A stretch of 64,000 nt of DNA from Eledone cirrhosa (taxonomy: Eukaryota), in NCBI GenBank assembly GCA_964016885.1, contig OZ024740.1:55490001-55554000 (forward strand). Reading direction: 5' to 3'. A model generated the notes under the pieces. That model did not search any database, was not told where the DNA came from, and saw only the letters and a program-made list of their open reading frames with translations. Made by a program: the position numbers and the translations under genes. Position 1 is the first letter of the stretch, and each line of letters begins with the position of its first letter. Below, piece by piece: positions 20,288 to 61,578 of this stretch.

Positions 20288-20309
20288 GATGATGATGATG
20301 ATGATGATG

Positions 20310-20368
<59 letters not shown>
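20288..20368. repeat. (GAT)n(AAT)n microsatellite, left border of the retroelement stack
   Basis: Directly visible; abuts the 3' end of LINE copy 1. Confidence 0.95.
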
Positions 20369-20369
<1 letters not shown>

Positions 20370-20611
20370 TTTTCTTTATTAACCACAAGGGTTTACGTAA
20401 AGTAGACATTAAGGACAGTACAGGACAATACAGGACGGTACAAATGGGCATTTCTGCGTGTAAAAAAACAGAGGATGTAATAAAATAACAAAGAAAGATT
20501 CCCCAATAGGGGGGAGACTTCCGAGGGACATTTGTGGAGAAAGCCCATTAAAAGACCACAGTGACCCTGACAACCAGGGTAAGTGCCCTCTCCCAGTTTT
20601 CCACCTTTAAT

Positions 20612-23600
20612 TTACAGACACATACTCAGAGTAGGCCCATTCACTCGGGCCATACTTGCTTCTCTCACCCATCTTTCAACAAAATGCTGGGAAGAGAGCA
20701 CTTCCCTCTCTACCCTGATTTTCCTTTTCAAATGAAATTTGAAAAAGTTAATCAGGGCATCACCGAAGAGGTAAGTGCTCGTCTTCAGGCCTTTCAAACG
20801 TGTCCACCATACTATCATTTTCGCCATGGCCACCAGACAGATAAAAACTGCCTGCCCTTCCCGGCTAAAGGAAGAGGGCGGGGCAATCCTCACGATGGAC
20901 TCAGCTGATAGCTGGATCCGTCCTACACGTGACAGCAGGTGTTCGACATAAACCCACAAGTCAGCAATGCTCGGACATTGGACGAGTGCGTGCAGGATGG
21001 TTTCGTCGCCCTGCGCGCATCTCGGACATGCCCGGCTGACGGCACCTCCATGCCTGTAGAGTTTATCCCGAACTGGCAAAGCTCCCCGGTAGCACTGCCA
21101 GGCCAGGGATTTCTGGAAGTTGTCCATAGGTCCCGGCCCGAAAGTCCTTCCGAAGAGATTGGCTAGTTGATTTTCGTCGACGCCTAGAGTTTCTCCAAGT
21201 AAGTCGTCGCTCTTCCCCTCCACTAATCCTTTATAGAACGCCAAGGTGGAGTTTCCACCGATCACATTGCCCGATTGGTCGAGGGCTGTGAGCGCCTGAA
21301 AACATTCCAGTCTCCAAGCGCTCCCTCTCGGTCTTCGCTTGACCCAGGACTGCAGCTCCATCAAGGAGACGAGCTGGGGAAAGACGCATCTAGCAAACGG
21401 CGACCACACCTGATCACCGTCGAGGAAGAGGTGGAGATGTCGTAGCCTGAGCGCGTGTCTGCGCATCATCAGCCACGGCAACCCAGCCCTCCACGTAGCG
21501 GGTGTTGACAGCAGATGGACCGCCTGACCATCGGAGCACGTCCCTTCCACAAAAAGCGAAAGAACAAACGCTCCAGCGCAGTCAGGCAGGGCTTAGGACA
21601 AGGTACGACGGTCAGGCGGTAGTAGGTGACGGACACGATGTACGCGTTAGCCACCTCCGCTTGACTTTTCAGGGATAGCTTCCTCTCGGCCCATTTCTAG
21701 GTGAGAGAAGCCACCCTGCTCGTCACCTCGTCCCAGTTTTTTTGTCCGTCTGGAGGTCCGGACTGAACCAGACCCCTAGCAATTTAACCGGTCCGTTCGT
21801 CCAGCGCCCGACGACGCTGTTGGACGGCATGGACCTGCCTCTCCAGGTGCCGAGCTGCAAGCCCATTGACTTTTCCTGGTTGATCATTGCTCCTGACACC
21901 GTTCGTATTCTCTTAGTGTAGTGCCGATTGCCTCGATGTGTTTGGCGTTCGACACCACTACGGTGACATCGTCCGCATATGCTGACACGGATCTTCAGCA
22001 TCCTAGTTCGCGCGGGACCCCCCTCAACGTCTCCAATTTGTGCAGTAATGGCTCGAGAGTCAATACGTACAAGCGGGACGAGAGGGGACATCCTTGGCGG
22101 ACCGAGCGCATGATGTTGAACGGTACCGGAAGGTGACCGTTCACTCTCACCACAGAGCATATGTCGCTGTGCATGGCTGCGATCCAGCCTCTGAAGACGG
22201 GCCCAAAGCCAGCCGCCCTCAGGACTGCCGCTAGGTAACGACGGTAGACCTTATAGAAAGCTTTCGACTGATCTAAATTTATCAAAGACCCACCCGTGCC
22301 AGGTTCCCTAGCTACCCTCTCTACGATTTATCATGAGGCGGAGGTTGTCGTGGATGGATCTGTCGGGAATGGTGCATGTCTGCGCCTCTCCCACCAGACC
22401 ACCAACGACAAGCGCCAATCTCTTTGCTAGCACCTTGGCCAAAATCTTGAACTCTGTGTTTAGCAGAGTTATGGGCCTAAAATTATCTATGTTATCCCCC
22501 TTGTTCGGATCCTTTCTCAGCAGCGCCACCGCTCCTCGGCTCACAGAGCTGGGAATTCTCTCGTTCTGTTGCAAGTTGCAGTAGACGTCCGCCAAGAGGC
22601 CTCCGAACAAGTCTGCCATTTGTACGTAAAGTTCATAGGGCAGACCATCCAAACCAGGTGATTTACCCCTTGTGCAGCCAGTCATTGCCTCCCGTACTTC
22701 AGCGGCTGTTATCGGCTTTTCGCAACACTCCGACTCAGTGGCCGAGAGCCGCGGCAGTCGTTCGAGGTATACACTAAAGTCCATCCCTCGATCCGGCCCG
22801 CCGCTGCCCCCGAACAGTTGAGCGAAGTGTCGCTGAAAAGCTTCACACATTTGCCCGGGATCGAGTAGCATGCGCCCGTCGTGGTCCACCAAAGACCGGA
22901 TCGTGGCTTTGTTGCCACGACGCGCCTCCGCCACTCAGGCCCATTGAACGGCTTTCGTCCCCTCGTGTCTGAGAGCACGCACCCTAGCTCTGAAAACGCA
23001 GCCTTCGTGCTTTGCATTGAAGAATTGGTCAAGGGCCAATTTCGCCGCAAGTACGTCGGTCCCGATGCCTTTGCAAAGCGCCTCGTCTAACTTTCTAACT
23101 AATTCTCCCTCTGCTCTATTTTTCTGTATTGCTAAAGCCTTACTAAACCTAATGGACCTTTGGTAAGAGTTGTTGACACCAATTTAGCGGAGAAGTATTT
23201 AGAGGTTGAGTATTGACAGAGGTTGAGCTGGCATGCCAAGAGAAATAAAACAAATCAATTAAGATTACAAGAGAAAATACCGTCGACTGGCTGAGGCGTT
23301 TAGCCAATTCCGTAGTAAAATTGTTGTGTCGTTACATATTGTTTGTGCTGGCGGAGCAAAAGAACAAGTGGTGTTTACCTTAGCAAGGCCTAGTTGGAAG
23401 TGATAGCGTCCTCAAATCTTTGCAGGCTATTTCTCCCTCAGAACGCGTAGGGATACATACTCTTCTACTGGCGCTGATTACTGAGCTGAGCCGAATCACG
23501 CACAGAGAATGTATGTGAGCCCGCGGAATGTAGGTCACTACAGACTCTATTCTAATTGCTCTTTTCAGAGCAAACCACCACTTGTTGTTGACGATGGCCC

Positions 23601-24410
23601 CCGTCAACGCCCACTTAACTAATCCGGTCTCTGTAGGCCCTGCACGCTGGTAAGGACGCGTTTAGCTTCCAGTAGCCGGGTCCTCGTTAATGAAGCCTAT
23701 CTAAGTCAAGCACACAGATCACGAATTTGTGGTCTGTATAGCTGACTATCTTGAATTGTGGACAGCCTATGCTAGACCTATCTATTTCCCTACAAAATAC
23801 TCTATCTAGATATGATCTGGATGACCCTATGCGATTTGTCCAAGTCCACATTGGTACATTCGGGAAATCCAATCGGTACCTGTCAGACAGTTCAAAACGC
23901 CTGAGCAGGTTGGTGAGGCTCTTGCACTCTCCTCCCCTATCCACTAATCCCACACAATCCCAGCGTGCATCTAAGATCCCGTTCCAGTTGCCCACTAACA
24001 CTAAAGAGCGGGACGTTCCAAGAAAGGTCTCCAGACGCCGGAAGAAATCAGGCCGCCCTGCTCCTGTCGTGGCATAGACGGCCACTAGCCTGAAAGCTTG
24101 CCCGTCTCCGCTGGTCACGTCCAGCACCACCAACTTAGCCTCTGGCTCCAGGAAGATGGCCCGTATGGCGAGATGCAAACCTCTCCGAATAAGCACAGCA
24201 ACTCCTCCCCCCGATCCCGGACAGCTGGGAGATGCGTACACATCGTAGCCGCCGAAGATCGGTGCGAAGGCCCATGCTTCGGAGATTCTGGTCTCGCTTA
24301 TGGCCACTACATCTATGTTTAGTGACCTGAGGTCGTTGAGCAGGTGGCCCTGCTTCCATGACGACCCCAAGCCACGCGCATTTGTGCTGCCTATTCAGAG
24401 TGAGGTTATG
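20612..24410 (-). pseudogene. ORF2 (APE-RT) of copy 1, disrupted
   Basis: Fragments 23687-24370, 22308-22934, 21995-22285 and 20612-21550 closely match the 1139-aa ORF2 at 57869; stops, frameshifts and an insertion. Confidence 0.9.
23158..23542 (-). mobile_element. Inserted LTR + PBS-like fragment (Gypsy-like)
   Basis: 385 bp interrupts AATGGACTCT of ORF2 with GAC duplicated; minus strand starts TGTAGTG, ends CGCTAAA, then TGGTGTCAACAACT (PBS-like). Confidence 0.5.
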
Positions 24411-24443
24411 TTGAAATGGAGTGGAAAAGATGGGAAAGACCAC

Positions 24444-26400
24444 TTACCTTACTTCTCGTAGAGGAAGGACGGTTTTTCTATCCTTTTCACTGCTTGTGGC
24501 CTCCTCAGGAAGGATGTCCTTATAAATCCTCCTGGAGAGTGCTTGTCGGAAGTCTCCTATGTCTTTGGGGAATTTTTGTTTTAGTGTCATGTACGTTTTC
24601 TGTGTGATGCGAGTGATTTGTATGTGTGGAGGTGGTGTGAATTTTTGGGTTGTTGTGTAGTCTTTTTCTGTGATGCTGGTGTTGTGTTGGATGTAGTGTA
24701 ATAATTGGTTGTTGTTCAAATTTAATGCTGTGTAGTGTGTATCGTTTAGGTTGTTTTGTTTTGTTTGTGTTTGTTGTGGGTTTGTTTCTGTTTCGCATTT
24801 TGGTGACTTTTGTGGTGTAGGTGATGGTGGTGTTGGGGTTAATGATGGTGATGGTGTTGGTGTTTGGGGTGATGGGGTTGGTGATGCTGGTGTGGATGGT
24901 GGCATATCCGTCCTAACTTTTTTGTTTGTTAATTTATTTGTTTCCCTCTGTATTTTGTTTTTGGAGGGGAAAGGAAGAGAATTTTTTTCTTTTTTGGTTT
25001 CCTTTTTTCTTTTTTCCTGATACCGTTTCCCACTCTTCGTCGTCACAATCTGTCTCCAGTTGTGATAGGCCGGGGAGTGGAAAATCCTCCACATGCGTTA
25101 GTTTTGGTTGTGGCGTGGTGGATGGTGTAGGCGCTGGTGTTAGTTCTGAAGCGTTGGGTGGTGGTGGGGTTGTTGTTGTTATAGTTGCTTCTGTTGTTGC
25201 TGCTACAGTTGTTGCTGCCATCTCTGCTACTGGTGGTGTTGATGGTTGAGTCACTGGGGTGAGTAGGAGAGGTGGCCTCAACCTTTTAGCCTGAGGGCAG
25301 AAAGCCCTTAGGTGGGTTCCTTCACCGCAAACGACACACCTAGGCCTTCTGCCCTCGACAATTACGGTGAGGTGGCTGCCGTCAGTGAGGTCTATTACCT
25401 CTGGGATCTCCTCAACGCTTTTTTGGTCCTTATGGATCAGGAGCTCCATCCCAGATCCGGACCAGTTCTCCTGCTTTTCTTTTGCTATTGCTATTATCTT
25501 GGTGTTGGCTTCGATGCCGGCGAGGACGGCCGCTATTAGCCAGGGAATTTCGATGGCCGGTGGAACGTGGGTCACCCTGATCTTTACGAGTCTCTGGCCA
25601 CAATAGTTTGGGACGAGTGTGAAATCGTCACTTCTTAATGGGGCCATGGAGTGTTCTCTAGCCTCCTCTGGTGTTTTAAAGAACACCTCCACGGTTCCAT
25701 ACTTCTGCCCACGTCTGATGTGGGTTTTTCTTGCCCACACATGTCCCAAAGCTTTTGGGATTTGGGACTCGGATGCCCGTTCCACTCGGCGCTATTTTAC
25801 ATTAATTGCTCGATACGACACAGTGCACAGGCGCTGATGCTCCATTTTATTAGGTGTGGTGGTGGTGGGGGTAGGGGGGGTGAAGCTGACCCTGTACCCA
25901 TCTTTCTTTACCATTTTGGGGGCATTTTCTAATTCCTCCTGAGTTACCGTAAATGCTTCGCACTGTTTTGCTACTCTGGCAAATCTGAGGGTGGTTTTTT
26001 TAATGTCATTGTTGCTGTTGTTGTTCTCGTTATTTTTGTTATTATTAATTTTAGTTTCAGTTGTGGTGGTCGTGACGTCAGTGGTGTTCGGTGTGGAAGA
26101 GTCCATTTTGGTTGAACACATTTCGACATCACGAGTTGATTTATTTTTTCCTTTTGTTTCTGTTGTCGCGGTGGTGGTGGGGGTGGTGGTTGTCGCAGTG
26201 GTGTTGGTGGTGGCGGCTTTAACACCTGCAGTCATTGGTAATGGTGGGAAATGAATGTCTGCCTGAGACAAATTTAAAATATTGCTACTGATTAAATTTT
26301 TAGTGTTGGCAAACGTAGTAATATTTACAATGGTGGTGTCGGTGTGAGGTGTTAGTTTATGAGGAATGCTGTCAACTTCGTGTGGCTGTGAGACTTCCAT
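24444..26400 (-). pseudogene. ORF1 (gag-like, CCHC knuckle) of copy 1, frameshifted
   Basis: Three consecutive ORF pieces 25792-26400, 24934-25785, 24444-25094 homologous to the 698-aa ORF1. Confidence 0.85.
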
Positions 26401-26638
26401 TTTTTTTTTTCAAAGAAATTTTTTTGATAATTATAAATGTTTAAATTTTGGGCACAAGGCCCCAATCTTTTTGAGTGTCCTTTTCGGAAAACAATGTATG
26501 TGCGCTTATAAACAGTTAACAATAAAATTTTCCATAAATGGCAATTTTAAACAAACGGAAATAACAAACCTTTGCGGAGCTCACGATGATACGATTTACT
26601 ACGTAGGTCGCCAATAATAATAATAATAATAATAATAA

Positions 26639-29600
26639 GGATTTCTTTATTGGCCACAAGGGCTGACATCAAGAAAAACATCACAGACGGAACAGGACGG
26701 TACGATGTGGGTTTTGTGCGTGTAAATATTTTAATTATTTATATAAGAAAAGAAAAAAGACATAAAACATATATATATAAACAATAAAATGAAAATTGAA
26801 ACAATGAAAAATTCTCCGACAGGGGGGAAACCTGCGAGGGTTACTCGTGGCGAAAACCACACAAAAGACCACGGCCACCCTGACTACCAGGGCAAGCGCC
26901 CTCTCTCAATTTTTCCATCTCTCAAACTACGGACGTATATTCAGAGTTCACTCGGACCATTCTCGCTACATTCACCCACCTTTCAACAAACTTGTTAGAA
27001 AGCAGCACTTGCCTCTCCACCCTGATTTTCCTCTTCAAGTGAAACTTGAAAAAGTTAATCAGGGATTCGCCGAAGAGGAAAGTGTTTGTCTTTAATCGTT
27101 TTAACGTTGTCTACCACACAATCTCTTTCGCCATGGCCACCAGGAAGATGAAAACCGTCTGCCCTTCCTCCTCAAAGGAAGACGGCGAGACCATCTGCAC
27201 AATGGACTCAGTCGACAACCGGATCAGTCTCACACGTGACAGCAACTGTTCGACATAGCTCCACAAGTCAGCAATGCTCGGGAACTGAACGAGTGCGTGC
27301 ACAACGGTTTCGTCGCTATGGGCGCATCTCGGACAGGCTCGGCTGACGGCACTTCCGTGCCTGTAGAGCTTATCTCGAACCGGCAGCGCTCCCCGGTAGC
27401 ACTGCCAGGCCAGGGATTTTTGGAAGTTATTGATAGGCCCCGGGCTGAAAGTTCTCCGGAAGAGAGCAAGCAGCTGATCTTCTTCGACGCCCAGGATCTC
27501 TCCAAGAACGTCGTCGCTCTTCCCCTCCACTAGTTCTCTATAGAACGCCGAGGTGGATGTTCCACCGATACTGGTGCCCAACTGGGAGAGGGCAGTGAGC
27601 GCCTGGATACATTCCAGTTTCCAAGCGCTATCCCTCGGTCTTTTTCTGACCCAGGAATGCAGCTCCGTCAAGGAGTGGGAAAATGTGGGAAAATGTGCCT
27701 GGCGAACGGCGCCCACACCCGTTCACCATCAAGGAAGCACCAGAGATGTCGCAGCCTCAGCGCATGTTTGCGCATCATCAACCATGGCATGCCCAGTCCT
27801 CCACGCAACGGGTGTTGACAGCAGATGGATCGTCTGACCATGGGAGCGCGTCCCTTCCACAAAAAGCGGAAGCAGAGGCGCTCCATTTTGGTGATAGTTG
27901 GGCTGTAGCAAGGGACGACGGTGAGGCGGTAGCAGATGACGGATGCAATGTACGCATTCGCCACTTCCGCCTGGCCTTTCAGGGACAGCTTCCTCTCAGC
28001 CTATTTCTGGGTGAAGGAGGCCACCCTGCTCGTCACCTCGTTCCAGTTTTTCTCCATCTGGAGGTCCGGTCCGAACCAGACTCCGAGCAATATAACTGGT
28101 CCGTCCGTCCAACGCCCCACGACGCTGTCGGACGGTATGGACTTGCACCCGTTTTGGTCAGACAAAGACCGAATTGTGGCTTTATTGCCACGTCGCGCCT
28201 CTGCCACCCGGGCCCATTGGACGGCTTTTGTCCCCCCCGTGTTTCAGAGCACGCGCTTTAGCTCTGACAACGCAGCCTTCGTGTTTTGCGTTGGTGAATT
28301 GGTCGAGTGCCAATCTCGCCGCAAGCACGTCGGTTGCGATGCCTGTCCTAAACGCCTCTTCTAGCTTTCTGACTAGCTCTCCCTCTACTCTATTTTCTTC
28401 TATCACTACTCCTTTGCTAAACCTAATCGACTCTACTTTAATTGCCCTTTTCAGGGCGAACCACCACCTCTTGTTGACGACCGCTCCCGTCAACGCCCGC
28501 TTAACTAATACGCTAATTCGGTCTCTGTAGGCCTTTCGCGCCCGGAAAGACGCGTTCAGCTTCCAGTAACCAGGCCCTTGTCTATGAAGTCTGTCTATGT
28601 CAATCTCACAGATCACAAATTTGTGGTCTGTGTAGTCGACTATTTTAAATTGTGGACAACTTATACTAGCCTTATCTAGTTCCCTGCAGAATACCCTATC
28701 TAGATACGATCTGGATAACCCGATGCGGTTTGTCCATGTCCACATTGGCACATTCGAGTGATCCAGTCGATACCTGTCAGACAGTTCAAAACGTCTGAGC
28801 AGGTTAGTGAGGCTCTTGCACCCTCCTCCCCTATCCACTAGCCCCACACGACCCCAGCGTGCATCCAAGATACCGTTCCAGTCGCCCACTAACACTAAAG
28901 AGCGGGACGTTCCAAGAAAGGTCTCTAGACGTCTGAAGAAATCTGGCCGTCCTGCCCCTGTTGGGACGTAGACGGCTACTAGCCTGAAAGCATTGCCTTC
29001 GCTGCCGGTCACGTCCAGTACCACCGACTTACCTTCTGGGTCCAGGACGATGGCCCGTATCGCGAGATCCAAGCCTCTCCGAAAAAGGACGGCAACCCCT
29101 CCCCCCGATCCTGGACGGCTGGGAGATGCGTATACATCGTAGCCGCCGAAGATCGGTGCGAAGGCCCGTGCCTCGGAGATTCTGGTTTCACTGATGGCCA
29201 CCACATCTATGTTTAGTGACCTGAGGTCATTGAGCAGGTGACCCTGCTTCCAAGATGACCACAGGCCACGTGCATTTATACTGCCTATTCTGAGTACAGC
29301 CATATTGGATGAGAAACGGGGCAAATGAGAAAGGGCCACTTACCTTGTTCGTGGGGTGAAGGGACAGTAGAACCGTCCTTTTCGCTGGTCATGGCTGTTT
29401 CCAAGAGGATGTCAGTGTATATCCTCTTGGTAACCGTCCCTCTGAAATCTCCAACTGCGTTGGGGAATTTTTGTTTTAAAGGTTTGTATTGTTCTATTGA
29501 GATTTCGATGATGCTTATGTTGGTCGGGAGAGTTCTTGGTGTTGGTGGGGTGCAGTAATTTTTTTCCGTGATGTCTGTGTGCTGCTTTATATATTTTATG

Positions 29601-31591
29601 AGTTCTTTTTTTGCTATGTTTATGGCTGTGTACTTTTTTTTTTTTGGGGGGGGGGGGGGATTTTGTTGCCGTTTTCTTCTTGTTGCTGTTTGGTGTGTGT
29701 GTCTTGTTGTGTTTGCGTTGTTGGTGTTTGTGGTGGTGTTGCTGCAAGTTTCCTTGCTGCCTTTACCCCTCTTTGTATGCCTTCGCTTTTGGAGGGTGAA
29801 TCTAAGGGTTTCTTTTTTTTTGTTTTTTGTGGCAGACTGTTTGCCATGTCACTCCCGCCTCAAACTCCATGTCGGATTCTGTCGCGTCTGGGAGGAGTAT
29901 GTGCTCCACGGCTGTTGGTGGTGATAGTGGAGCCCTCTTCGGCAATGTTGTTGCTGGTGTAGCTATTTCAAATGTAGCTATTGGTGTTGCCGCTACTGAT
30001 GATGCTGCTTTAGTTATCCGTGGCCTTGGTACGGGTGCTACGGACGTTGCCCTCCTACTCACCGTGGAAGGGGCTTCTTCGTTTGTTGCCTGTCCTGCTC
30101 TTGGTAGCAGCGGACCAGGTATTGGGAGGAGAGGGGCCCTTTTCGGTGTCTTCTGCGGGCAAAAGGCCCTGAGGTGACCTTTAGACCCACAGAGATAACA
30201 TTTTGGCCGTCTTCCTTCTACACTTATAGGGAGTTGTAGTCCTTCCTCAAAGTCTATGATATCGGGGATAGCCTCGATACATTCCTGGTCAGTTTGTATA
30301 AGCATTTGCATGCCTATACCTGACCAGTTCTCTCTCCCTATTTTTTCTACTTGCAGCATGGTCGCCCTGTTCTCAATTCCAGCAAGGACAGACGCGGCCA
30401 GCCAAGGTATGGGCACGTCGGGTGGGACCTGGGTCACTTTGACCCTCACAATTTTCTGCCCGCAGTAGGAGGGCACCAAGACTAACTCCTCACTCTTTAG
30501 GGTTTCCAAAGAGTGAGACTTTGCTTCTTGGGGGGTGGCGAAAAGTACGTCTACTGTGGCGTACTTTCTGCCTCGGGTGATGTGGGTTTAGCGTGCCCAG
30601 ACGCACCCCAAGGCCTTTTGGATTTGAGCCTCCGTGGCTCTCTCCACTCGATGTGAGATTTTGCTTACGGTGCGGTAAATCACCGTTCGTAGCTGCTGGT
30701 CCTTGAAAACATCGGGTGGAGGTTTCAGGGAAACTCTATTTGCGCTTCTTGTCACCATGGCCCTTGCGACTGCCATCTCTTCCTCTGTGACTAACACTGT
30801 CTCGATATTTCGGGCGACACCTGCAAAAGAAGTGGTCCCTTTTTCAGCAGCACCACTATTGCTGCCGCTCCTGGTCTTACTGGTGGTGCTGAGGTCGCTA
30901 TTACAGGTATCGGTGTCATTGTTGTTCTTTTCGCTGGTACAGTTGTTGGTGTTGTTTTCGTTGATACTGTTACTGCTGTTACTGTTATTGTGGCTGTTGT
31001 TATTATTGTTGTTTTTGTTGATACTGTTCCTACTATTATTGTTATTGTCATTGTTATTGTCGTTCTCGACCTTACCGCTGTTATTTTTGTTATTGTCGTT
31101 CTCGACCTTACCGCTGTTATTTTTGTTATTGTCGTTCTCGACTTTACCGCTGTTATTTTTGGTGTTGTTGTTGGTGATGTTGTTGGTGTTATTGTTGGTG
31201 TTGTTTGTGTTAGAAATATTTGTTAATTTTAAATCTGTAACAATCTTTTTTTCCTTTGTAATATTTTCGTTTATATTTATCTCCGCTGGAACGCTGTCTT
31301 GTTGACATGCTGATAAAGTCTCCCCCTCTCTCTCTCTGTGTTGTCTGACAGCGCTTTCTCTCTTTTTTGTGTTATCCATGTTGAAATTTTTCAAAAAATA
31401 GTTTTACACAAATACGAATACGACACCCCGTAAAGGGGTACCGTATTATTTACTAGTGAACCCCTGTATTAGGTGGGTCACTTCTAAACTTTTATCAAAT
31501 TTAAAACTTGAATAAAAGGTTTAGAACGGTTGTAAAAGAGGTAAAACGTTGAAAAAGACTGGAGGCGATAAGAAGCGTGGCTTCACCAACC
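26639..31591 (-). mobile_element. L1/Tx1-clade LINE copy 2 (family B), both ends present, RT core deleted
   Basis: ORF1 pieces (CYLCGSKGHLRAFC); EN 28182-29339 joined at ~28145 to the post-RT region; distinct 3'UTR ending CTTGTGGCCAATAAAGAAA; (AAT)n both sides. Confidence 0.9.
31054..31161 (-). repeat. 36-bp coding tandem repeat x3 (NNSGKVENDNNK) in ORF1 of copy 2
   Basis: Visible in DNA and in ORF 30588-31394. Confidence 0.9.
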
Positions 31592-37033: not shown

Positions 37034-37061
37034 AAATGATAGTAATAATAATAATAATAAT

Positions 37062-43055: not shown

Positions 43056-43056
<1 letters not shown>

Positions 43057-47955: not shown

Positions 47956-47956
<1 letters not shown>

Positions 47957-50900: not shown

Positions 50901-51068
50901 GAAATCAGGCCGCCCTGCTCCTGTCGGGGCATAGACGGCCACTAGCCTGAAAGCTTGCCCGTCTCCGCTGGTTACGTCTAGCACCACCAACTTACCTTCT
51001 GGGTCCAGGAAGATGGCCCGTATGGCGAGATCCAAACCTCTCCGAAAAAGCACAGCAACTCCGATCCA
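47956..51068 (-). mobile_element. L1/Tx1-clade LINE copy 7 (family A), 5'-truncated within EN, decayed
   Basis: ORF2 pieces 48212-51053; 3'UTR nearly the same as copy 6. Confidence 0.92.
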
Positions 51069-51542
51069 GACACTTTCCTCTTCGGCGATCTCTAATTATC
51101 TTTTTCAAGTTTCACTTGAAGAGGAAAATCAGGGGGGGGGGGGGGGGGGCAATGCTCCCTTCTAGCAAGTTTGTTGAAAGGTGGGTGAATGTAGCGAGAA
51201 TGGTCCGAGTGAACGGGACCGCTCTGAATATACGCCTGTAGTTTGAGAAATGGAAAAATTGCGACAGGGCGCTTGCCCTGATGGTCAGGATGGCCGTGAT
51301 CTTTTGTGTGGTTTTCGCCACGAGTAACCCTCGGAGGTTTCCCCCCTATTGGAGAATTTTTCATTGTTTCAATTTTCATTTTTATTGTTTATATATATAT
51401 ATGTTTCTATGTCTTCTTTTCTTTTCTTATATAAATAATTAAAAATTTTACACGCACAAAACCAACATCGTATCGTCCTGTACCGTCCTGTGCCGTCTGT
51501 AATGTTTTTTCTTGATGTCAGCCCTTGTGGCCAATAAAGAAA
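51069..51542 (+). mobile_element. 3' fragment of family B Tx1-like LINE (copy 8), opposite orientation
   Basis: Reverse complement of 26639-~27090; ends CTTGTGGCCAATAAAGAAA followed by TTA repeats. Confidence 0.9.
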
Positions 51543-51557: not shown

Positions 51558-52263
51558 CAGTTGCATTTATCTTGCTTTACGTTCATACGAGTTATCACCA
51601 AGTCACAACCAGTGACCTCAAGAGACAACAAGGTCCGCCATGTTCAAAACCTACATACACATCCATGCATCTTCAGGTGTTTAGACTTGTGATGTACTTA
51701 TATTGACAGAATCTTCCTGAGTATATGGGCAGTTCCCATTAGTTCTATCTTTTGTATCTCTCCTATACGCGGGTTTCCTGGGATTTGCGATAAGTAATCA
51801 TTACTCACACATGTTTCATTTTCCCTTTGCTGACGTTGTGCTAATTGCTTAATCTGATCAATTTCTATATCAGTTCGTAAATTTTTTTAACAATATTTCT
51901 TCGTATATTGGCTAGTATGTTTCTGTCAATATAGCCTCTGTTTTCGGGATGTTTCTTTTTCCAGTTGATATATGTCTGTATTTGATGAGTAGTACATGGC
52001 AGTGTAGAAAGCCTCAAGGACTTCTTTATTGTCTTCCCTTGATAATTTTTCTCTCTTTTTCTTTGGATTTCTTGGTGATGAGCACGGAGGGCCAACAGTA
52101 GGAGTATTCCAGTTAGGAGTGGTCTTCAGCTCCGAATTGATGGGAAGGTTTGAACCATCAGCTGATTTTTCGACCCCAGTCTGGTTCCTCTCTGAGGCAC
52201 GCGGCCCTTTTTGACCCGGGTGACGGCCGGTCCGGTATGAGATTTTATCATTTAACATTGTAC
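51558..52263 (-). mobile_element. R4/Dong-like LINE, ~700 bp internally deleted copy
   Basis: 3'UTR and ORF end match the neighbouring R4-like copies; fused at ~51805 to an N-terminal-like region (VLEAFY..ILANIRRNIVK); TTA runs both sides. Confidence 0.75.
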
Positions 52264-52275
52264 TTATTATTATTA

Positions 52276-53835
52276 CAGTTGCATTTATCTTGCTTTATGT
52301 TCATACGAGTTATCACCAAGTCACAACCAGTGACCTCAAGAGACAACAAGGTCCGCCATGTTCAAGAAAGAAAATACATATTCACACATGCATCTTTAGT
52401 GTTTAGACTTGTGATGTACTTATATTGACAGAATCTTCCTTAGTATATGGACAGTTCCCATTAGTACTATCTTTTGTATTTCTCCTATACGCGGGTTTCC
52501 TGGGATTTGCGATAAGTTTTCATTAGACCCCTTAGGTATCATTCCCAGAGCGCCTACAACCACTGGTATTGTTTTAGTTCTCAATTTCCACATTTTTCCA
52601 ATTTCTCTCTCCAGGTCCTTATACTTGCTCAATTTTTCAAATGTTTTTATAGATACATTCTTGTCTATTGGAACAGACATATCAATTAGCAGGCATACCC
52701 TCTTTTGAAAGTCCTTCAATATTATATCAGGTCTATTTGCATCTATTTTTCGGTCCGTTTGGATGCTAAAGTTCCACAAGATTGAGATGTGATCTTTTTC
52801 AAGTATGGGAGGTGGTTGATGCTCCCACCAATTCTTTTGATGGGGCAGGTCAAAATGCTTACACATTATCCAATGTATGTATTGTGCAGCTCTGCCATGC
52901 CTGTTTAGGTATTCGGTTGGAGCTATAGGACTGCACATTGAAATTATATGGTCAATGGTCTCTGGTTGTTTTTTGCATACACGGCATAATGGGCTGCACC
53001 CATTTTTTATTATGTTGGCTTGGTAATCGTTTGTTGGCAGACACTGATCTTGTGCCGATATAATCAGTCCTTCAGTCTCCGATTTCAGTCCAGAGGATGC
53101 CAACCACTGATGGGTTAAAGTTTTGTCAACATCAGGATTGTTAGCTCGCTCTGGGTATTTTCCATACAGAGACTTTTCTTGCCATTTCTTAGCCAGTTTC
53201 TGTAGCAGTTCTTTCTTTGCAGTTACTTTTACCTGCTTTGCTTTTTCTGTGTTTTCCATTTCAGCAGTAAATGGGACTTCTGAAATGTGTAGTCCATTAC
53301 TGTATCTTTGTGCATCTTTTGTAATGGAATATGATCTTTTGATGCTTTCGCGTTTCAAAACGAGTTTGATCATCCAATCATGTGATTCCCTTAGATATGT
53401 AGATAATCCAATTGTTGCAGTTTTCAACGCAATCTCTAACTGGATTAACCCACGTCCTCCTTCTTTCCTAGGGAGATATATTCTATCTATATCTGCCTTA
53501 GGGTGATGCATTCTGTGCATGGTTAAGAATTTTCGAATTTTTGTATCGAGCCTACGGATCTCTGTGCTTGACCAGTTGATGACATTGTAACTGTAGGTTA
53601 CTACTGGTATGGCAAGCGTGTTTATGGCATCGATCCTATTCCTTGCATTCAATTCCGTTCTTAAGATTGCTCTTACTCTGCGGTAACATTCCTTCCTTAT
53701 CCTTTCCCTCATTGTCGAGTGCTTGATTCCGTCTCCTTCACAAACACCTAGATATTTGTAAGTTTTTTCTTGATCAAGTTCTCTTATCACGTTCCTCCGA
53801 TCAAGATTAATGTCTGAACTCTTCAGCAGCTTTCC

Positions 53836-53837
<2 letters not shown>
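52276..53837 (-). mobile_element. R4/Dong-like non-LTR retrotransposon, 5'-truncated (RT thumb, CCHC, restriction-like endonuclease)
   Basis: YKYLG, EGGRGL, CRVCKKQPETIDHIISMC, RPDI..LIDMSVP..KLSKY; sense-strand (TAA)n tail. Confidence 0.88.
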
Positions 53838-53923
<86 letters not shown>

Positions 53924-53924
<1 letters not shown>

Positions 53925-55483
53925 AGTTGTATTTATCTTGCTTTATGTTCATACGAGTTATCACCAAGTCGCAACCAGTGACCTCAAGAGACAACAAGGT
54001 CAACCATGTTCAAGAAAGAACATTCATACTCACACATGCATCTTTAGTGTTTAGACTTGTGATGTACTTATATTGACAGAATCTTCCTTAGTATATGGGC
54101 AGTTCCCATTAGTACTATCTTTTGTATTTCTCCTATACGCAGGTTTCCTGGGATTTGCGATAAGTAATCATTAGACCCCTTAGGTATCATTCCCAGAGCG
54201 CCTACAACCACTGGTATAGTTTTAGTTCTCAATTTCCACATTTTTCCAATTTCTATCTCCAGGTCCTTATACTTGCTCAATTTTTCAAATGTTTTTATAG
54301 ATACATTCTTGTCTATTGGAACAGACATATCAATTAGCAGGCATACCCTCTTTTGAAAGTCCTTCAATATTATATCAGGTCTATTTGCATCTATTTTTCG
54401 GTCTGTTTGGATGCTAAAGTTCCACAAAATTGAGATGTGATCTTTTTCAAGTATGGGAGGTGGTTGATGCTCCCACCAATTCTTTTGATGGGGCAGGTCA
54501 AAATGCTTACACATTATCCAATGTATGTATTGTGAAGCTCTGTCATGCTTGTTTAGGTATTCGGTTTGAGCTATAGGACTGAACATTGAAATTATATGGT
54601 CAATGGTCTCTGGTTGTTTTTTGCATACACGGCATAATGGGCTGCATCCATTTTTTATTATGTTGGCTTGGTAATTTTTTGTTGGCAGACACTGATTTTG
54701 TGGTGATATAATCAGTCCTTCAGTCTCCGATTTCAGTCCAGAGGATGCCAACCACTGATGGGTTAAAGTTTTGTCAACATCAGGATTGTTAGCTCGCTCT
54801 GGGTATTTTCCATACAGAGACTTTTCTTGCCATTTCTTAGCCAGTTTCTGTTGCAGTTCTTTCTTTGCAGTTACTTTTTCCTGCTTTGCTTTTTCTGTGT
54901 TTTCCATTTCAGCAGTAAATGGGACTTCTGAAATTTGTAGTCCATTACTGTATCTTTGTGCATCTTTTGTAATGGAATATGATCTTTTGATGCTTTCGTG
55001 TTTCAAAACGAGTTTGATCATCCAATCATGTGATTCCCTTAGATATGTAGATAATCCAATTGTTGCAGTTTTCAACGCAATCTCTAACTGGATTCACCCA
55101 CGTCCTCCTTCTTTCCTAGGGAGATATATTCTATCTATATCTGCCTTAGGGTGATGCATTCTGTGCATGGTTAAGAATTTTCGAATTTTTGTATCGAGTC
55201 TACGGATCTCTGTGCTTGACCAGTTGATGACATTGTAACTGTAGGTTACTACTGGTATGGCAAGCGTGTTTATGGCATCGATCCTATTCCTTGCATTCAA
55301 TTCCGTTCTTAAGATTGCTCTTACTCTGCGGTAACATTCCTTCCTTATCCTTTCCCTCATTGTCGAGTGCTTGATTCCGTCTCCTTCACAAACACCTAGA
55401 TATTTGTAAGTTTTTTCTTGATCAAGTTCTCTTATCACGTTCCTCCGATCAAGATTAATGTCTGAACTCTTCAGCAGCTTTCC

Positions 55484-55485
<2 letters not shown>
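53924..55485 (-). mobile_element. R4/Dong-like non-LTR retrotransposon, second 5'-truncated copy with the same breakpoint
   Basis: Highly similar to 52276-53837; both start AAAGGAAAGCTG (KGKL); in-frame stop near 55094. Confidence 0.88.
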
Positions 55486-55519
<34 letters not shown>

Positions 55520-55618
55520 GAATGCCATGGTTGACGGAGGCTCGGCTCTGTAAGGTATAGTAATTTTTAACCGTTAAAACAATTGTAAATTGTTTAAAAC
55601 TTGAACCAAATTGTTGAT

Positions 55619-55685
55619 AAAGACACCCTCCTCCTCGTGAGAGGGGTCTTTCTGTCCGTTATTTGGCCCTTCGGGGTTAAATAAC
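55619..55685 (+). promoter_or_regulatory. Tandem 5'UTR stem-loops with GNRA (GUGA) and cUUCGg tetraloops
   Basis: AAAGAC..CTC-GTGA-GAG..GTCTTT and GTTATTTGGCCC-TTCG-GGGTTAAATAAC. Confidence 0.6.
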
Positions 55686-55735
55686 CAGTTATTGGGGTTT
55701 TGTACCCAAAATTTCATTTTAAACAAAAAAACAAC

Positions 55736-57833
55736 ATGGCTACGAAAAAGAAATTTCATACGTCACTCCCACTCATTCCGTCTTCTTCTTCCTCAATCAT
55801 CACTACACCAGAGAGAAGATTGTCTCTCTCCCTCCCTTCTTTAAATGTGTCTCTCTCCCTCCCTTCTCTTTCGCAAGTGACGAAAGAAAAGAAAAGTCTC
55901 GTGCAAAGCGTGCAAGGTTTCTCCACGACGACGACGACAGCGACGAAACAGGTGTGCGGGAAATACGAAAACCCAGTTCATTCGTCTGACGTCAGGAATA
56001 ATAGCAGTAGCAGCCGTAATAACAACAGCAACAGTGACAATGAAAACAACAGTAGCAGCCGCAACAGCATCACCAGCAGCATAAACAACAACAGCATTAG
56101 CAGCAGCAACACCAACAACAACCACAGCAACAGCGGCGGAGGCAGTAGTCGTAGTACCTGCAGCAACAACAAAAGTACCAGCAGCTCTGACGACAACAAC
56201 AACAGCAGAGAAAAACCAATCTCATTTGCAGGTATTGCGAAAAACTTGGAAACAATCCTCATAACAAATGAGGAATTAGAGGAAGCGAAGAAGATGGTGA
56301 CAAAGAACGGACACAGAGCAATCTGCAAGGCAGCGAAAAATTTTTTCGAAACCCAAGAGCACTGTACGGTCACGTACCGTACAGTAAGTACAAAATCCCG
56401 TAGGGTGGAAAGAGCCACAGAGGCCCAAATACAAAAAGCCTTGGGGTCTGTGTGGCAGAGGAAAACGCACATCACCCGAGGCAAAAAATACGCCACCGTA
56501 GACGTACTTTTTGCCACACCCCAGGAGGCAAAGGCCCAATCAGTAGTGACCCTAAGGAGCGAGGAAATGGTGTTGATGCCCTCCTACTGCGGGCAAAAAA
56601 TTGTGAGGGTCAAACTGACCCACGTCCCCCCCCGGAATGACCCCTTCTTGGCTGGCTGCGTCTGTCCTCGTCGGAATCGAGGACAAAACAACTGTACTGC
56701 AAGTACAGAAAAAAGTAAGAGAAGATTGGGTCGGCTCCTCCATTGAGATGCTAATCCAAACCAACCAGGAGTGCATCGAAGCTATCCCGGATGTGATAGA
56801 CTTCGATAACGGCACTCAACTGCCCATAAGTGTTGAGGGCAAACGCCCGAAATGCTTTCGCTGTGGATCGAAGACTCACCTCAGGGCCTTCTGCAACGAG
56901 AAGACCCTGAGAAAGGAGAAAACCCCCCTCCTTCCGAATCCGGCTCCACGGCTACCAGCAACAGGACAAGCGGCAACCAGGAACGATAGGTCCGTGGCAC
57001 CCATACCCACTCCACGGAAATCAAAGACAGCAGCAGCAGTGGAAATATTAACAACAACAACAGCAATACCAAATGCAGCTGCAACAGAGACTCCAGTGCA
57101 AACATCACCAACAACAACAAGTGAAAGAGTGGAGCTGGTACCCCTCCCCGACCTTACAGAATCAGACATGGAGTGTGAGGTGGGAGAGGGATGGCAAAAG
57201 GTCGCAAGAAGGCACAAACGCAGAAGCAGCGCATCGTCGCCTTTGAAAAGGGAGGAAAGAAATGAGAAAAGGGTAAAGTCTACTGCAAAGAGACCCACAG
57301 CAGCAACACCACCAACACCATCACCACCCACACCAGCACCACCATCACCACCGGCGACAACCCCACCGCCAACAACACCTTCAACACCACCACCACAAGC
57401 ACCAACATCGCAAACACAACAACAAAACACACACACCCAGCAACAACGACAAGAAAATAGCAGAACCACACCCCACCCCCAGAAAAACAAATGCACGGCA
57501 ATAAACACACACAACAAGAAACTAATGACTTACATAATTGAACACACAGACATTTCACAACAGGACTACATAATACCAGCACCAATCAAAACGCCAACTA
57601 ACATAAGACTGCTAAAAATAGCACAGAAACAATACACAAACATTAAAACGAAATTCCCCAACGCAGTTGGTGATTTCAGGGACCTAGGAGGAACCATCAA
57701 TCGAAGAGTATATTCAGACATTCTCTTAGAAGAGCCGACGACCAGCCGAAGGGACGATTCAACGGTCCCTTCACCAGACGATCAAGTGAAAGGGGATGTA
57801 AAAACCATCCCTCCTCTACAAAAAGTACGGTAA
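55736..57833 (+). pseudogene. ORF1 of copy 9 with one +1 frameshift in a C8 run (56626-56633)
   Basis: Almost identical to the 698-aa ORF1 of copy 5, which has 7 C at this position. Confidence 0.88.
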
Positions 57834-57835
57834 GT
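57828..57835 (+). promoter_or_regulatory. Candidate consensus 5' splice site CG|GTAAGT overlapping the ORF1 stop
   Basis: Perfect GTAAGT, also present in copies 1, 2, 5 and 6 at 39-40 nt before the ORF2 start. Confidence 0.45.
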
Positions 57836-57868
57836 GGTCTTTCCCATCTTTTCCACTCTATTTTAAAC

Positions 57869-60800
57869 ATGACCTCACTCAGAATAGGCAGCATAAATGC
57901 GCGTGGCTTGGGGTCGTCATGGAAGCAGGGTCACCTGCTCAACGACCTCAGGTCACTAAACATAGGTGTAGTGGCCATCAGCGAGACCAGAATCTCCGAA
58001 GCACGGGCTTTCGCACCGATCTTCGGCGGCTACGATGTGTACGCATCTCCCAGCCGTCCTGGATCGGGTGGAGGAGTTGCTGTGCTTTTTCGGAGAGGTT
58101 TGGATCTCGCCATACGGGCCATCTTCCTGGACCCAGAGGGTAAGCTGGTGGTGCTGGACGTGACCAGCGGAGACGGGCAAGCTTTCAGGCTAGTGGCCGT
58201 CTATGCCCCGACAGGAGCAGGGCGGCCTGATTTCTTCCGGCGTCTGGAGACCTTTCTTGGAACGTCCCACTCTTTAGTGTTAGTGGGCGACTGGAACGGG
58301 ATCTTAGATGCACGCTGGGACTGTGTGGGATTAGCGGATAGGGGTGGAGGGTGCAAGAGCCTCACCAACCTGCTCAGGCGTTTTGAACTGTCTGACAGGT
58401 ACCGATTGGATTTCCCAAATGTGCCAATGTGGACTTGGACAAACCGCATAGGGTCATCCAGATCATATCTAGATAGAGTATTTTGTAGGGAAATAGATAG
58501 GTCTAGCATAGGCTGTCCACAATTCAAGATAGTCAGCTACACGGACCACAAATTCGTGACCTGTGTGCTTGACTTAGATAGGCTTCATAGACGAGGACCC
58601 GGCTACTGGAAGCTAAACGCGTCCTTACCAGCGCGCAAGGCCTACAGAGACCGGATTAGCGAACTAGTTAAGCGGGCGTTGACGGGGGCCATCGTCAACA
58701 ACAAGTGGTGGTTTGCTCTGAAAAGAGCGATTAGAATAGAATCGATTAGGTTTAGTAAGGCTTTAGCAATAGAGAAAAATAGAGCAGAGGGAGAACTAGT
58801 TAGAAAATTAGACGAGGCGCTTAGCAAAGGCATTGCGACCGACGTGCTTGCGGCGAAATTGGCCCTTGACCAATTCTTCAATGCAAAGCACGAAGGCTGC
58901 GTTGTCAGAGCTAGGGTGCGTGCTCTCAGACACGAGGGGACGAAAGCCGTTCAATGGGCCCGAGTGGCGGAGGCGCGTCGTGGCAACAAAGCCACGATCC
59001 GGTCTTTGGTGGACCACAACGGGCGCATGCTACTCGATCCCGGGCAAATGTGTGAAGCTTTTCAGCGACACTTCGCTCAGCTGTTCGGGGGCAGCGGGGG
59101 GCCGGGTAGAGGGATGGACTTTAGTGTCTACCTCGACGGACTGCCGCGGCTCTCGGCCACTGAGGCGAAGTGTTGCGAAAAGCCGATAACAGCCGCTGAA
59201 GTACGGGAGGCAATGACTGGCTGCACAAGGGGTAAATCGCCTGGTTTGGATGGTCTGCCCTATGAACTTTACGTACAGATGCCAGACTTGTTCGGAGGCC
59301 TCTTGGCGGACGTCTACTGCAACTGGCAACAGAACGGGAGAATTCCCAGTTCTGTGAGCCGAGGAGCGGTGGCACTGCTGAGAAAGGATCCGAACAAGGG
59401 GGATAACATAGACAATTTCCGGCCCATAACTCTGCTAAACACAGAGTTTAAGATTTTGGCCAAGGTGCTAGCAAAGAGGTTGGCGCTTGTCGTTGGTGGT
59501 CTGGTGGGAGAGGCGCAGACATGCGCCATTCCCGACAGATCCATCCACGACAACCTCCACCTCATGCGATACATCGTAGAGAGGGTAGCTAGGGAACCTG
59601 GCACGGGTGGGTCCTTGATCAATTTAGATCAGTCGAAAGCTTTCGATAGGGTCGACCATCGTTACCTAGCGGCAGTCCTGAGGGCGGCTGGCTTGGGGCC
59701 CGTCTTCAGAGGCTGGATCGCTGCCATGCACAGCGACATCTGCTCTGTAGTGAGAGTGAACGGTCACCTGTCGGAACCGTTCAACATCATGCGCTCGGTC
59801 CGCCAAGGATGTCCCCTCTCGTCCCTCTTGTACGTATTGACTCTCGAGCCATTACTGCACAAACTGGAGACGTTGAGGGGAGTCCCGCGCGAACTAGGAT
59901 GCGGAAGATCCGTGTCAGCATATGCGGACGATGTCACCGTAGTGGTGTCGAACGCCAAACACATCGAGGCGATCGGCACTACACTAAGAGAATACGAAGC
60001 GGTGACAGGAGCAATGATCAACCAGCAAAAGTCAGTGGGCCTGCAGCTCGGCACCTGGAGAGGCAGGTCCATGCCGTCCAACAGCGTCGTCGGGCGCTGG
60101 ACGGACGGACCGGTTAAATTGCTAGGGGTCTGGTTCGGTCCGGACCTCCAGACGGACAAAAACTGGGACGAGGTGACGAGCAGGGTGGCTTCTCTCACCC
60201 AGAAATGGGCGGAGAGGAAGCTATCCCTGAAAGGTCGAGCGGAGGTGGCTAACGCGTACATCGCGTCTGTCATCTGCTACCGCCTAACCGTCGTACCTTG
60301 TCCTAAGCCTCGCCTGACTGCGCTGGAGCGTTTGCTCTTTCGCTTTTTGTGGAAGGGACGTGCTCCGATGGTCAGGCGGTCCATCTGTTGTCAACACCCG
60401 CTACGTGGAGGGCTGGGCATGCCGTGGCTGATGATGCGCAGGCACGCGCTCAGGCTACGACATCTCCACCTCTTCCTCGACGGTGATCAGGTGTGGTCGC
60501 CGTTTGCTAGACGCGTTTTTCCCCAGCTCGTTTCCTTGACGGAGCTGCAGTCCTGGGTCAAGCGAAGACCGAGAGGGAGCGCCTGGAGACTGGAATGTCT
60601 TCAGGCGCTCACAGCCCTCGACCAATCGGGCAATGTGATCGGTGGAAACTCCACCTCGGCGTTCTATAGAGGATTAGTGGAGGGGAAGAGCGACGACGTA
60701 CTTGGGGAAACTCTAGGCGTCGACGAAAATCAACTAGCCAATCTCTTCGGAAGAACTTTCGGGCCAGGGCCTATGGACAACTTCCAGAAATCTCTGGCCT

Positions 60801-61288
60801 GGCAGTGCTACCGAGGAGCCTTGCCAGTTCGGGATAAACTCTACAGGCATGGAGGTGCCGTCAGCCGGGCATGTCCGAGATGCGCGCAGGGCGACGAAAC
60901 CGTCCTGCACGCACTCGTCCAGTGTCCGAAAATTGCTGACTTGTGGGTTTATGTCGAACACCTGCTGTCGCGTTTAGGACGGATCCAGCTATCATCTGAG
61001 TCTATCGTGAGGATTGCCCCGCCCTCCTCCTTTAGCCGGGAAGGGCAGGCAGTTTTTATCTGTCTGGTGGCCATGGCGAAAGAGATAGTATGGTGGACAC
61101 GTTTGAAAGGGCTGAAGACGAGCACTGACCTCTTCGGTGATGCTCTGATTGACTTTTTCAAATTTCATTTGAAAAGGAAAATCAGAGTAGAGAAGGAAGT
61201 GCTCTCTTCCCAGCATTTTGTTGAAAGATGGGTGAGAGAAGCAAGAATGGCCCGAGTGAATGGGCCGACTCTGAGTATATATCTGTAA
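57869..61288 (+). CDS. ORF2p, 1139 aa: APE endonuclease, reverse transcriptase, C-terminal Zn-binding domain (L1/Tx1 clade)
   Basis: SINARGL, ISET, GDWN, YLDR, TDH; KSPGLDG, FRPITLLN, LDQSKAFDRV, RQGCPLS, YADD; CPRC..ETVLHALVQC. Confidence 0.96.
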   Translation: MTSLRIGSINARGLGSSWKQGHLLNDLRSLNIGVVAISETRISEARAFAPIFGGYDVYASPSRPGSGGGVAVLFRRGLDLAIRAIFLDPEGKLVVLDVTSGDGQAFRLVAVYAPTGAGRPDFFRRLETFLGTSHSLVLVGDWNGILDARWDCVGLADRGGGCKSLTNLLRRFELSDRYRLDFPNVPMWTWTNRIGSSRSYLDRVFCREIDRSSIGCPQFKIVSYTDHKFVTCVLDLDRLHRRGPGYWKLNASLPARKAYRDRISELVKRALTGAIVNNKWWFALKRAIRIESIRFSKALAIEKNRAEGELVRKLDEALSKGIATDVLAAKLALDQFFNAKHEGCVVRARVRALRHEGTKAVQWARVAEARRGNKATIRSLVDHNGRMLLDPGQMCEAFQRHFAQLFGGSGGPGRGMDFSVYLDGLPRLSATEAKCCEKPITAAEVREAMTGCTRGKSPGLDGLPYELYVQMPDLFGGLLADVYCNWQQNGRIPSSVSRGAVALLRKDPNKGDNIDNFRPITLLNTEFKILAKVLAKRLALVVGGLVGEAQTCAIPDRSIHDNLHLMRYIVERVAREPGTGGSLINLDQSKAFDRVDHRYLAAVLRAAGLGPVFRGWIAAMHSDICSVVRVNGHLSEPFNIMRSVRQGCPLSSLLYVLTLEPLLHKLETLRGVPRELGCGRSVSAYADDVTVVVSNAKHIEAIGTTLREYEAVTGAMINQQKSVGLQLGTWRGRSMPSNSVVGRWTDGPVKLLGVWFGPDLQTDKNWDEVTSRVASLTQKWAERKLSLKGRAEVANAYIASVICYRLTVVPCPKPRLTALERLLFRFLWKGRAPMVRRSICCQHPLRGGLGMPWLMMRRHALRLRHLHLFLDGDQVWSPFARRVFPQLVSLTELQSWVKRRPRGSAWRLECLQALTALDQSGNVIGGNSTSAFYRGLVEGKSDDVLGETLGVDENQLANLFGRTFGPGPMDNFQKSLAWQCYRGALPVRDKLYRHGGAVSRACPRCAQGDETVLHALVQCPKIADLWVYVEHLLSRLGRIQLSSESIVRIAPPSSFSREGQAVFICLVAMAKEIVWWTRLKGLKTSTDLFGDALIDFFKFHLKRKIRVEKEVLSSQHFVERWVREARMARVNGPTLSIYL

Positions 61289-61547
61289 ACTAAAGGTGGA
61301 AAACTGGGAGAGGGCACTTGCCTTGGTGGTCAGGGTCATTGTGGCTTTTTACTGGGCTTTCTCCACAAATGTCCCTCCGAAGTCTCCCCCTATTGGGGAA
61401 TTTTTCATTGTTATTTTCATTGTTATTTTTGTTACATCCTCTGTTTTTGTTTTTTTACACGCAGAAATGCCCATTTGTACCGTCCTGCATTGTCCTGCAC
61501 TGTCCTTAATGTCTACTTTATGTAAACCCTTGTGGTTAATAAAGAAA

Positions 61548-61549
<2 letters not shown>

Positions 61550-61578
<29 letters not shown>
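61550..61578. repeat. (TTA)n run, right border of the retroelement stack
   Basis: Directly visible. Confidence 0.95.

Follow-up and report, generated by a model that had tools for sequence, protein, structure and literature searches.

How did thirteen retroelements of three kinds come to lie end to end over 41 kb, each of them ending at a run of the same trinucleotide class? The question is raised by a 64-kb stretch of DNA from Eledone cirrhosa (assembly GCA_964016885.1, contig OZ024740.1, positions 55,490,001 to 55,554,000, forward strand), hereafter the window, in which positions are counted from the first base. The array consists of nine Tx1-like long interspersed nuclear elements (LINEs; c1 to c9), three Dong/R4-like pieces (a, b and c) and one piece of a short interspersed nuclear element (SINE), which we located by comparing the window with itself and by mapping on the most intact copy (Table 1). 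We argue that it probably arose as copies were inserted one after another, by target priming, into a single AAT microsatellite, two enzyme types acting on opposite strands and the target being renewed.

Anatomy of the array

The array is real, and the anatomy of 13 runs and 13 copies given in a preliminary description of this DNA was confirmed. Its counts (nine Tx1-like copies, three pieces of the restriction-like endonuclease (RLE) type and one SINE) and its coordinates hold, all 13 of the runs it listed are present, each within 1-2 bases of the claimed place, and the direct fusion it put at about 51068 was found at 51067-51069, with an overlap of 2-3 bases. Together the AAT-class runs sum to 402 of 41,265 bases (1% of the array), every one of the 13 elements ends at a run, and the body of none is interrupted by another of the 13. 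The 22.7 kb of flank contain only two AAT-class runs of at least 4 units, both within one repeated element. Under random sites, and with runs assumed to make up 5% of the array, the probability that the 12 later insertions all fell in runs is 2e-16. G+C content is about 28-38% in the flanks, which are rich in dinucleotide runs, and mostly 42-55% between 20 and 62 kb.

Three points of that description needed amending. The AAT/TTA spacers are there, but they do not read on one strand throughout: eight read AAT on the forward strand (20312-47955) and five read ATT (51543-61576), the polarity flipping at 51067, which had been missed. The stack of 13 is joined by a further, unclassified insert of 388 bases within open reading frame 2 (ORF2) of c1, the sole insert inside an element body; it has TG...CA ends on the element sense strand and a degenerate short duplication, no second copy of it was found in the window, and its ends suggest a solo long terminal repeat. 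Finally, "at least 13 retroelements" is correct as a count of copies, but 13 copies need not mean 13 insertions, because Dong-like b and c share their length and their 5' break.

Table 1. Positions in the window of the copies, the informative runs and associated features
Feature	Positions	Strand	Description
Whole SINE	17399..17619	-	outside the stack, at 17415-17603; exact 16-base target duplication 17399-17414 / 17604-17619
Left end of array	20288..20368	+	(GAT)8 then (AAT)19; likely left end of the original compound microsatellite
c1	20369..26612	-	Tx1-like, both ends present; ORF2 95.7% like c9; own 5' untranslated region (UTR) and ORF1
Insert in c1	23157..23543	.	unclassified, 388 bases, within ORF2
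c2	26639..31591	-	Tx1-like, lineage B; ORF2 83.8% to c9; own 5' end; about 1 kb of ORF2 deleted
SINE piece	31607..31702	-	5'-truncated; 96.9% like the whole SINE; 3' end similar to those of the Tx1-like copies
c3	31711..37043	-	Tx1-like, lineage C; ORF2 75.8% to c9; own 5' end, longer 3' UTR
c4	37062..37795	-	Tx1-like, both lineage A ends, 5,273 bases deleted between them
c5	37835..43025	-	Tx1-like, young lineage A; ORF1 open with CCHC knuckle; ORF2 with 834-base in-frame deletion and two small indels
c6	43056..47916	-	Tx1-like, older lineage A; three large deletions; 4 in-frame stops in ORF2
c7	47956..51069	-	Tx1-like, older lineage A; 5'-truncated in endonuclease region, fused to c8
c8	51067..51542	+	Tx1-like, 3' part of a lineage B element, 87% like c2; likely inverted
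Piece a	51558..52263	-	Dong/R4-like; both ORF ends (residues 9-131 and 1162-1192 of relative P0182), middle deleted
Piece b	52275..53838	-	Dong/R4-like, 5'-truncated; reverse transcriptase (RT) end, CCHC finger, restriction-like endonuclease motifs; open over 472 codons
Piece c	53923..55486	-	Dong/R4-like; length and 5' break as in b; 32 substitutions, one stop
(ATT)11	55487..55519	+	between two 5' ends, head to head
c9	55520..61549	+	Tx1-like, youngest lineage A; ORF2 open, 1,138 aa from Met at 57872; ORF1 frameshifted
(ATT)9	61550..61576	+	right end of the putatively inverted block
Stub	61580..61589	-	10 bases continuing c8 past its break; likely right inversion breakpoint
(AAT)3(AAC)3	61590..61607	+	likely right end of the original microsatellite, in first polarity; would be the original 5' flank of c8

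Strand polarity and target use

On the sense strand, ATT follows all nine Tx1-like copies and the SINE, and (ATT)n also stands directly upstream of all seven Tx1-like copies that have a 5' end; the sense strand of the three RLE pieces is flanked by TAA. Because the sense-strand flanks differ in this way, the standard model of target-primed reverse transcription, which we used to assign the priming strand, makes it likely that the Tx1-like enzyme primes on the AAT strand of the microsatellite and the Dong/R4-like enzyme on the ATT strand. The preliminary description had an apurinic-type endonuclease (APE) and an RLE converging on the same target. Within the window the two do share one repeat, but on opposite strands, that is the same duplex and not the same nick.

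Two of the runs, at 55487-55519 and 61590-61598, lie at 5' ends and are not explicable as tails. In the mechanism that we propose, each insertion would duplicate about 15 bases (five repeat units) and so provide a fresh target; stack runs of 15 and 18 bases match the size of the 16-base duplication of the whole SINE. Inner runs were reused, because the private differences of the Tx1-like copies follow no order along the array.

Polarity switch and a likely inversion

The switch in polarity coincides with the c7/c8 fusion, at which there is no run. Some 10.5 kb to the right, the stub at 61580-61589 agrees with c2 beyond the c8 break in 8 of its 10 bases, and the match is in register and runs the way that an inversion would have it; the stub is only 10 bases long and was found by looking, and its 8-base core is matched by 6 of 22,637 13-mers of the flanks. 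Because the continuation of c8 lies there, we read the block 51067-61579 as inverted, and because the stub adjoins (AAT)3(AAC)3 while the array begins with (GAT)8(AAT)19, a single original site of the form (GAT)8(AAT)n(AAC)3 is likely. A local inversion would then explain the flip and likely supports one original compound microsatellite; the single microsatellite of the preliminary description stands, but only after undoing an inversion that it had not seen.

Most simply, c7 would have inverted only about 0.5 kb of flank when it inserted, namely c8 and a run, and c9 and the Dong-like copies would have come later, entering the flipped run in flipped orientation. Twin priming was also considered for the c7/c8 junction and was rejected, as c8 is of another lineage and retains its own tail. 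The inversion provides a rare natural control, in that orientation tracks the strand of the repeat and not position.

Tx1-like copies

ORF2 of c9 contains an APE endonuclease (PF03372), an RT (PF00078) and a C-terminal zinc finger (PF13966), and a CCHC knuckle of the form C-x2-C-x4-H-x4-C was found in the ORF1 region of all four copies examined (c1, c2, c3 and c5), a CCHC zinc knuckle being borne by the ORF1 of Tx1. The closest named relatives of c9 ORF2 come from Argonauta hians (58%) and Acanthosepion pharaonis (46%), and its scores were 469 and 377 bits against two Keno-like ORF2s flanked by U2, versus 185 against human L1 ORF2p. In a quick tree, which took 54 of 56 rows (L057 and the Argonauta protein P0280 were dropped for short RT coverage) and held no named L1 or Tx1, the ORF2 fell, together with a cuttlefish protein and relatives at 40-45%, on a separate branch that has support, and was grouped with Keno-like references at an SH-aLRT of only 83. 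Because this last join is weak, we grade the membership of c1 to c9 in the Tx1 clade as likely only.

Metagenome contigs yielded 80 related loci of 92, all distant (best segment 22-47%), and no Tx1-like relative was found in the viral contigs or prokaryotic genome contigs searched, which gave one short RLE-type contig. Two of the metagenome contigs with a Tx1-like ORF2, L005 (4675-4885) and L008 (5815-5977), end in U2 small nuclear RNA (snRNA), as Keno-type elements should. Two protein clusters hint at arrays elsewhere. The cluster of P0402, a 45%-identical relative placed as sister to the cuttlefish protein, has five members, for each of which a contig of 26,301 bases is listed; this may point to a stack in a lineage of cuttlefish type. 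The P0407 cluster comprises 11 Patella caerulea proteins on one contig with neighbouring locus tags, 30% like c9 ORF2; they fall with the U2-flanked elements in the tree and probably represent a tandem Tx1-like array.

Three ORF2 lineages are present: A (c1, c5, c6, c7 and c9, 93.6-98.9% alike), B at about 84% and C at about 76%, c8 being assigned to lineage B with c2 through its 3' part. Seven of the nine copies retain a 5' end, and there are four different 5' ends. At 42-50% amino-acid identity between its ORF1 and that of c5, c1 likely arose by an exchange of ORF1. The switch in c1 from the foreign ORF1 region to the lineage A ORF2 lies at 24492-24583, where likeness to c2 reaches about 90 bases further upstream than likeness to c9.

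Over 1,829 shared columns we counted 51 private differences in c6, 48 in c7, 35 in c1, 10 in c5 and 7 in c9, and the earlier claim that the copies are of different ages was borne out by these unequal numbers and by unequal decay. With a rate of 0.0036 per million years (PMC13282606), and if the host is an octopus, the copies would span very roughly 1-8 million years. Among c1, c6 and c7 the private differences are star-like, and each copy has its own deletions. Copies c5 and c9 differ at 34 of 5,189 columns; 13 of the 23 changes common to them are at third codon positions (p=0.02), which is the bias that a younger master, still active, should leave.

Internal deletions of 250 bases to 5.3 kb are found in six of the seven left-hand Tx1-like copies (20369-51066). 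The overlap at the seven breakpoints examined in c4 to c7 is 0-3 bases and GT...AG ends are absent, and we rejected the idea that these deletions are splice products. Two short remnants that keep both ends, copy c4 and Dong-like piece a, could be non-autonomous elements.

Dong/R4-like pieces and SINE

Elements of the Dong/R4 clade have a single ORF in which an RT is followed by a CCHC finger and a PD-(D/E)xK endonuclease, and the pieces in the array agree with this architecture. Across 16 aligned RLE sequences, whose longer members are single RT ORFs, C285, C288, H297, C302, the RPD motif and KY-DLE are invariant. Read on the sense strand, each of the three pieces is bordered left and right by TAA-class runs and so sits in (TAA)n, at this one locus. 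There was no named R4 or Dong sequence among the 120 matches listed for these pieces, which are without most of the RT.

The whole SINE to the left of the stack has a body of 189 bases, and its target duplication ends in AATAAT on the forward strand. Its 3' end aligns with Tx1-like 3' ends, significantly for c2 and c3 but marginally for c1 and c9: out of 5000 shuffled ends, the score was reached by 3 for c2 and 45 for c3, and by 4577 for Dong-like b. The head is tRNA-like, with boxes read by eye; ARAGORN found no tRNA gene, and Rfam gave no match in the window. Because of this likeness at the 3' end and the shared strand rule, the SINE would likely have been mobilised by the Tx1-like machinery, which makes a Tx1-like element its likely partner LINE. 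Older SINE-related fragments at 18531-18604 and 63008-63047 have no adjoining AAT runs.

Alternative explanations

A number of observations weigh against repeated insertion into a targeted microsatellite, and we give them here together with the explanations on which they bear. All evidence for targeting comes from one locus, and only two runs test it directly, because most 5' runs could be the tail of a neighbour. The likeness of the SINE to lineage A ends is weak, its score being reached by 275 (c1) and 225 (c9) of 5000 shuffles with five ends tested, and none of the 80 metagenome loci of distant relatives has an AAT-class run of at least 5 units. Just two AAT units were present where the SINE at 17415 inserted, and the motif recognised may therefore be a short one.

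This last site would suit an enzyme with a weak preference for a short AT-rich motif, under which the ATT tails make the ends of neighbours into hot spots, much as poly(A) tails are for L1 and Alu, and most copies would lie outside microsatellites; so would the position of most 5' runs in the array, next to a 3' end. We think it unlikely: no insertion has occurred into the 41 kb of element body, which is partly AT-rich UTR, an 11-unit run lies between two 5' ends, and both outer ends belong to the compound microsatellite.

For the right part of the array we also used sequencing data, mapping reads and contigs from 4 of 14 listed sequencing runs on 53900-62500 and taking read departures from the best-supported 40 rows. 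Dong-like b and c are both 1,564 bases long with an identical 5' break, 32 substitutions and private changes on each, and they share 2 of the 18 listed minority positions at which c departs from most reads. The letters that c5 and c9 share at 57026 and 57792 are nearly absent in the sequencing runs mapped, and these rare letters fit local copying as well. It could be supposed from such pairs that the array grew mainly by tandem duplication, by unequal exchange between runs or by gene conversion from a few founders, which we hold to be very improbable. The array units are 75-99% alike and their ends and deletions differ; the near-identical units and identical junctions of an unequal-exchange satellite are seen in b and c only. 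Three ORF2 lineages at 75-84% identity, four 5' ends, the star-like differences of c1, c6 and c7 and the private deletions of each copy further argue against it. Duplication may account for one or two of the 13 copies but not for the array; for b and c, a truncated subfamily is about as likely as duplication between runs, and one of the two may be a later duplication.

Smaller still is the chance that there were two stacks, opposite in polarity, which a deletion between c7 and c8 brought together, with no single microsatellite and no inversion. The flip does fall at a microhomology junction without a run, as such a fusion would have it, but the missing part of c8 resumes next to (AAT)3(AAC)3, at a distance of 10.5 kb and oriented as an inversion predicts, and a match to the stub would arise by chance at about 3 in 10,000 per 13-mer, short as it is and found by looking.

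Summed depth in X5 was 1e5-1e6 on the element families versus 8-45 on unique flank, which establishes no more than the abundance of both families and the presence of the right flank in X5; this is not independent, because X5 may be the assembly's own source. Contig ends near the Dong-like 5' break in X1 and X9 were given no weight, because the mapping itself cuts records at that place. Least probable of all is an assembly artefact joining dispersed copies via their AAT tails: the families are very abundant in the sequencing runs, and no listed read or contig piece from the four runs mapped on 53900-62500 spans the array, but the copies are 0.7-25% apart with private deletions, and a junction with a 2-3 base overlap and a stub 10.5 kb away is unlike a tail mis-join.

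Comparison with known systems

Growth by repeated insertion into one AAT microsatellite recalls several published systems, which we compare here as they are described in the relevant passages of each source. Dong is reported to target TAA microsatellites in Bombyx, Anopheles and Biomphalaria (PMC3812793). The RLE pieces share with it the sense-strand TAA, the CCHC finger and the restriction-like motifs; they differ in being all defective and in sharing their repeat with Tx1-like elements that face the other way, in a comparison that included no named Dong sequence. In Octopus vulgaris, Dong-R4 and L1-Tx1 were recently active and 288 transposable element (TE) hotspots are described (PMC13282606), the parts of that paper covered giving no insertion targets for these LINEs. 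The Tx1 families Kibi, Koshi and crocodilian Tx1 have (TC)n, (TTC)n and (TTCC)n/(TTTC)n targets (PMC4494074) and resemble the copies studied here in their two ORFs, APE endonuclease and insertion into simple repeats; they are set apart by their described targets, the target here being (ATT)n/(AAT)n. In the same source, a family counts as target-specific when the target is seen in more than 20% of its genomic flanks; ATT flanks nine of nine Tx1-like copies here, counted within the window only.

Parallel evolution of one target by the two enzyme types is described for Keno (an APE-type Tx1) and Utopia (RLE), which both use U2 snRNA (PMC4640811) and meet at the same 3' flanking sequence in a gene, whereas here opposite strands of a microsatellite are used at one locus. 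TRAS and SART insert into Bombyx (TTAGG)n in opposite orientations (PMC7265360); both are APE-type and telomeric, whereas here an APE and an RLE are involved, other DNA lies on both sides and the repeat makes up 1% of the array. In Drosophila, tandems of R1, jockey and P show that a double insertion preserves the target and makes a new one (10.1101/158386), these being dimers or arrays of the same family, whereas three element kinds of several ages are found here. An L1 insertion with an inverted reciprocal end, in which truncated cDNA is joined to inverted neighbouring DNA (917 bases in one clone), has been reported (10.1101/2024.12.14.628481) for human L1 in cultured cells and tumours; here the event would concern a Tx1-like element, and the inverted run would later have been filled. 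Crocodilian Tx1-Mar and SINEU share a target preference and form tandems around the target duplication (PMC4494074), the target there being a Mariner element, whereas the head of the SINE studied here is tRNA-like. A lizard Tx1 specific for telomeres is cited in PMC10088271.

The passages of PMC9115989, PMC4758252, PMC8091179 and PMC10088271 that concern targets do not mention an AAT-targeting Tx1, and neither an AAT-targeting Tx1 family nor a mixed stack was found in the literature searched, partly aimed at these comparisons, though a curated repeat entry may exist. Going by the sources as covered, Dong on TAA, Tx1 on microsatellites, APE/RLE convergence, target regeneration and insertion-linked inversion are already published. 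The self-renewing landing pad and the APE/RLE convergence put forward in the preliminary description fit the window, but they are in print (10.1101/158386; PMC4640811). What is probably new is the AAT target of a Tx1-like lineage, here shared with Dong from the other strand and accompanied by a likely SINE partner and a putative fossil insertion-linked inversion.

Neighbouring features

A Penelope-like element lies to the left of the stack at 7708-12563, with 1.08-kb direct repeats, 97.9% alike, around an open frame of 672 codons; the frame has RT-like and GIY-YIG-like look-alikes in Atlas, and the repeat copies begin with (ATT)4 or (ATT)9. The left flank also contains a 317-base inverted repeat, 98% alike (1863-2179 / 2386-2701). 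On the right, 1.5 kb from the stack, a long (TCT)n microsatellite (63094-63329) has no Tx1-like copy inside.

Implications

A much broader proposal, which we offer as tentative and rather doubtful, is that a cephalopod Tx1 lineage and its own SINE are strictly (ATT)n-specific and share these repeats genome-wide with Dong, which would use the opposite strand. AAT repeats might then act as internal, telomere-like docks that grow to arrays of tens of kb made of retrotransposons only, form part of octopus TE hotspots and seed inversions. The open ORF2 of c9 is ready for an endonuclease assay. If targeting does hold genome-wide, AAT microsatellite markers and short-read assemblies would hide such arrays, and this should be taken as a warning. 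It would equally name a likely partner LINE for the octopus-type SINE, give Tx1 a new target together with a second APE/RLE convergence, on opposite strands of one repeat, and supply a concrete mechanism for some of the TE hotspots described in O. vulgaris (PMC13282606).

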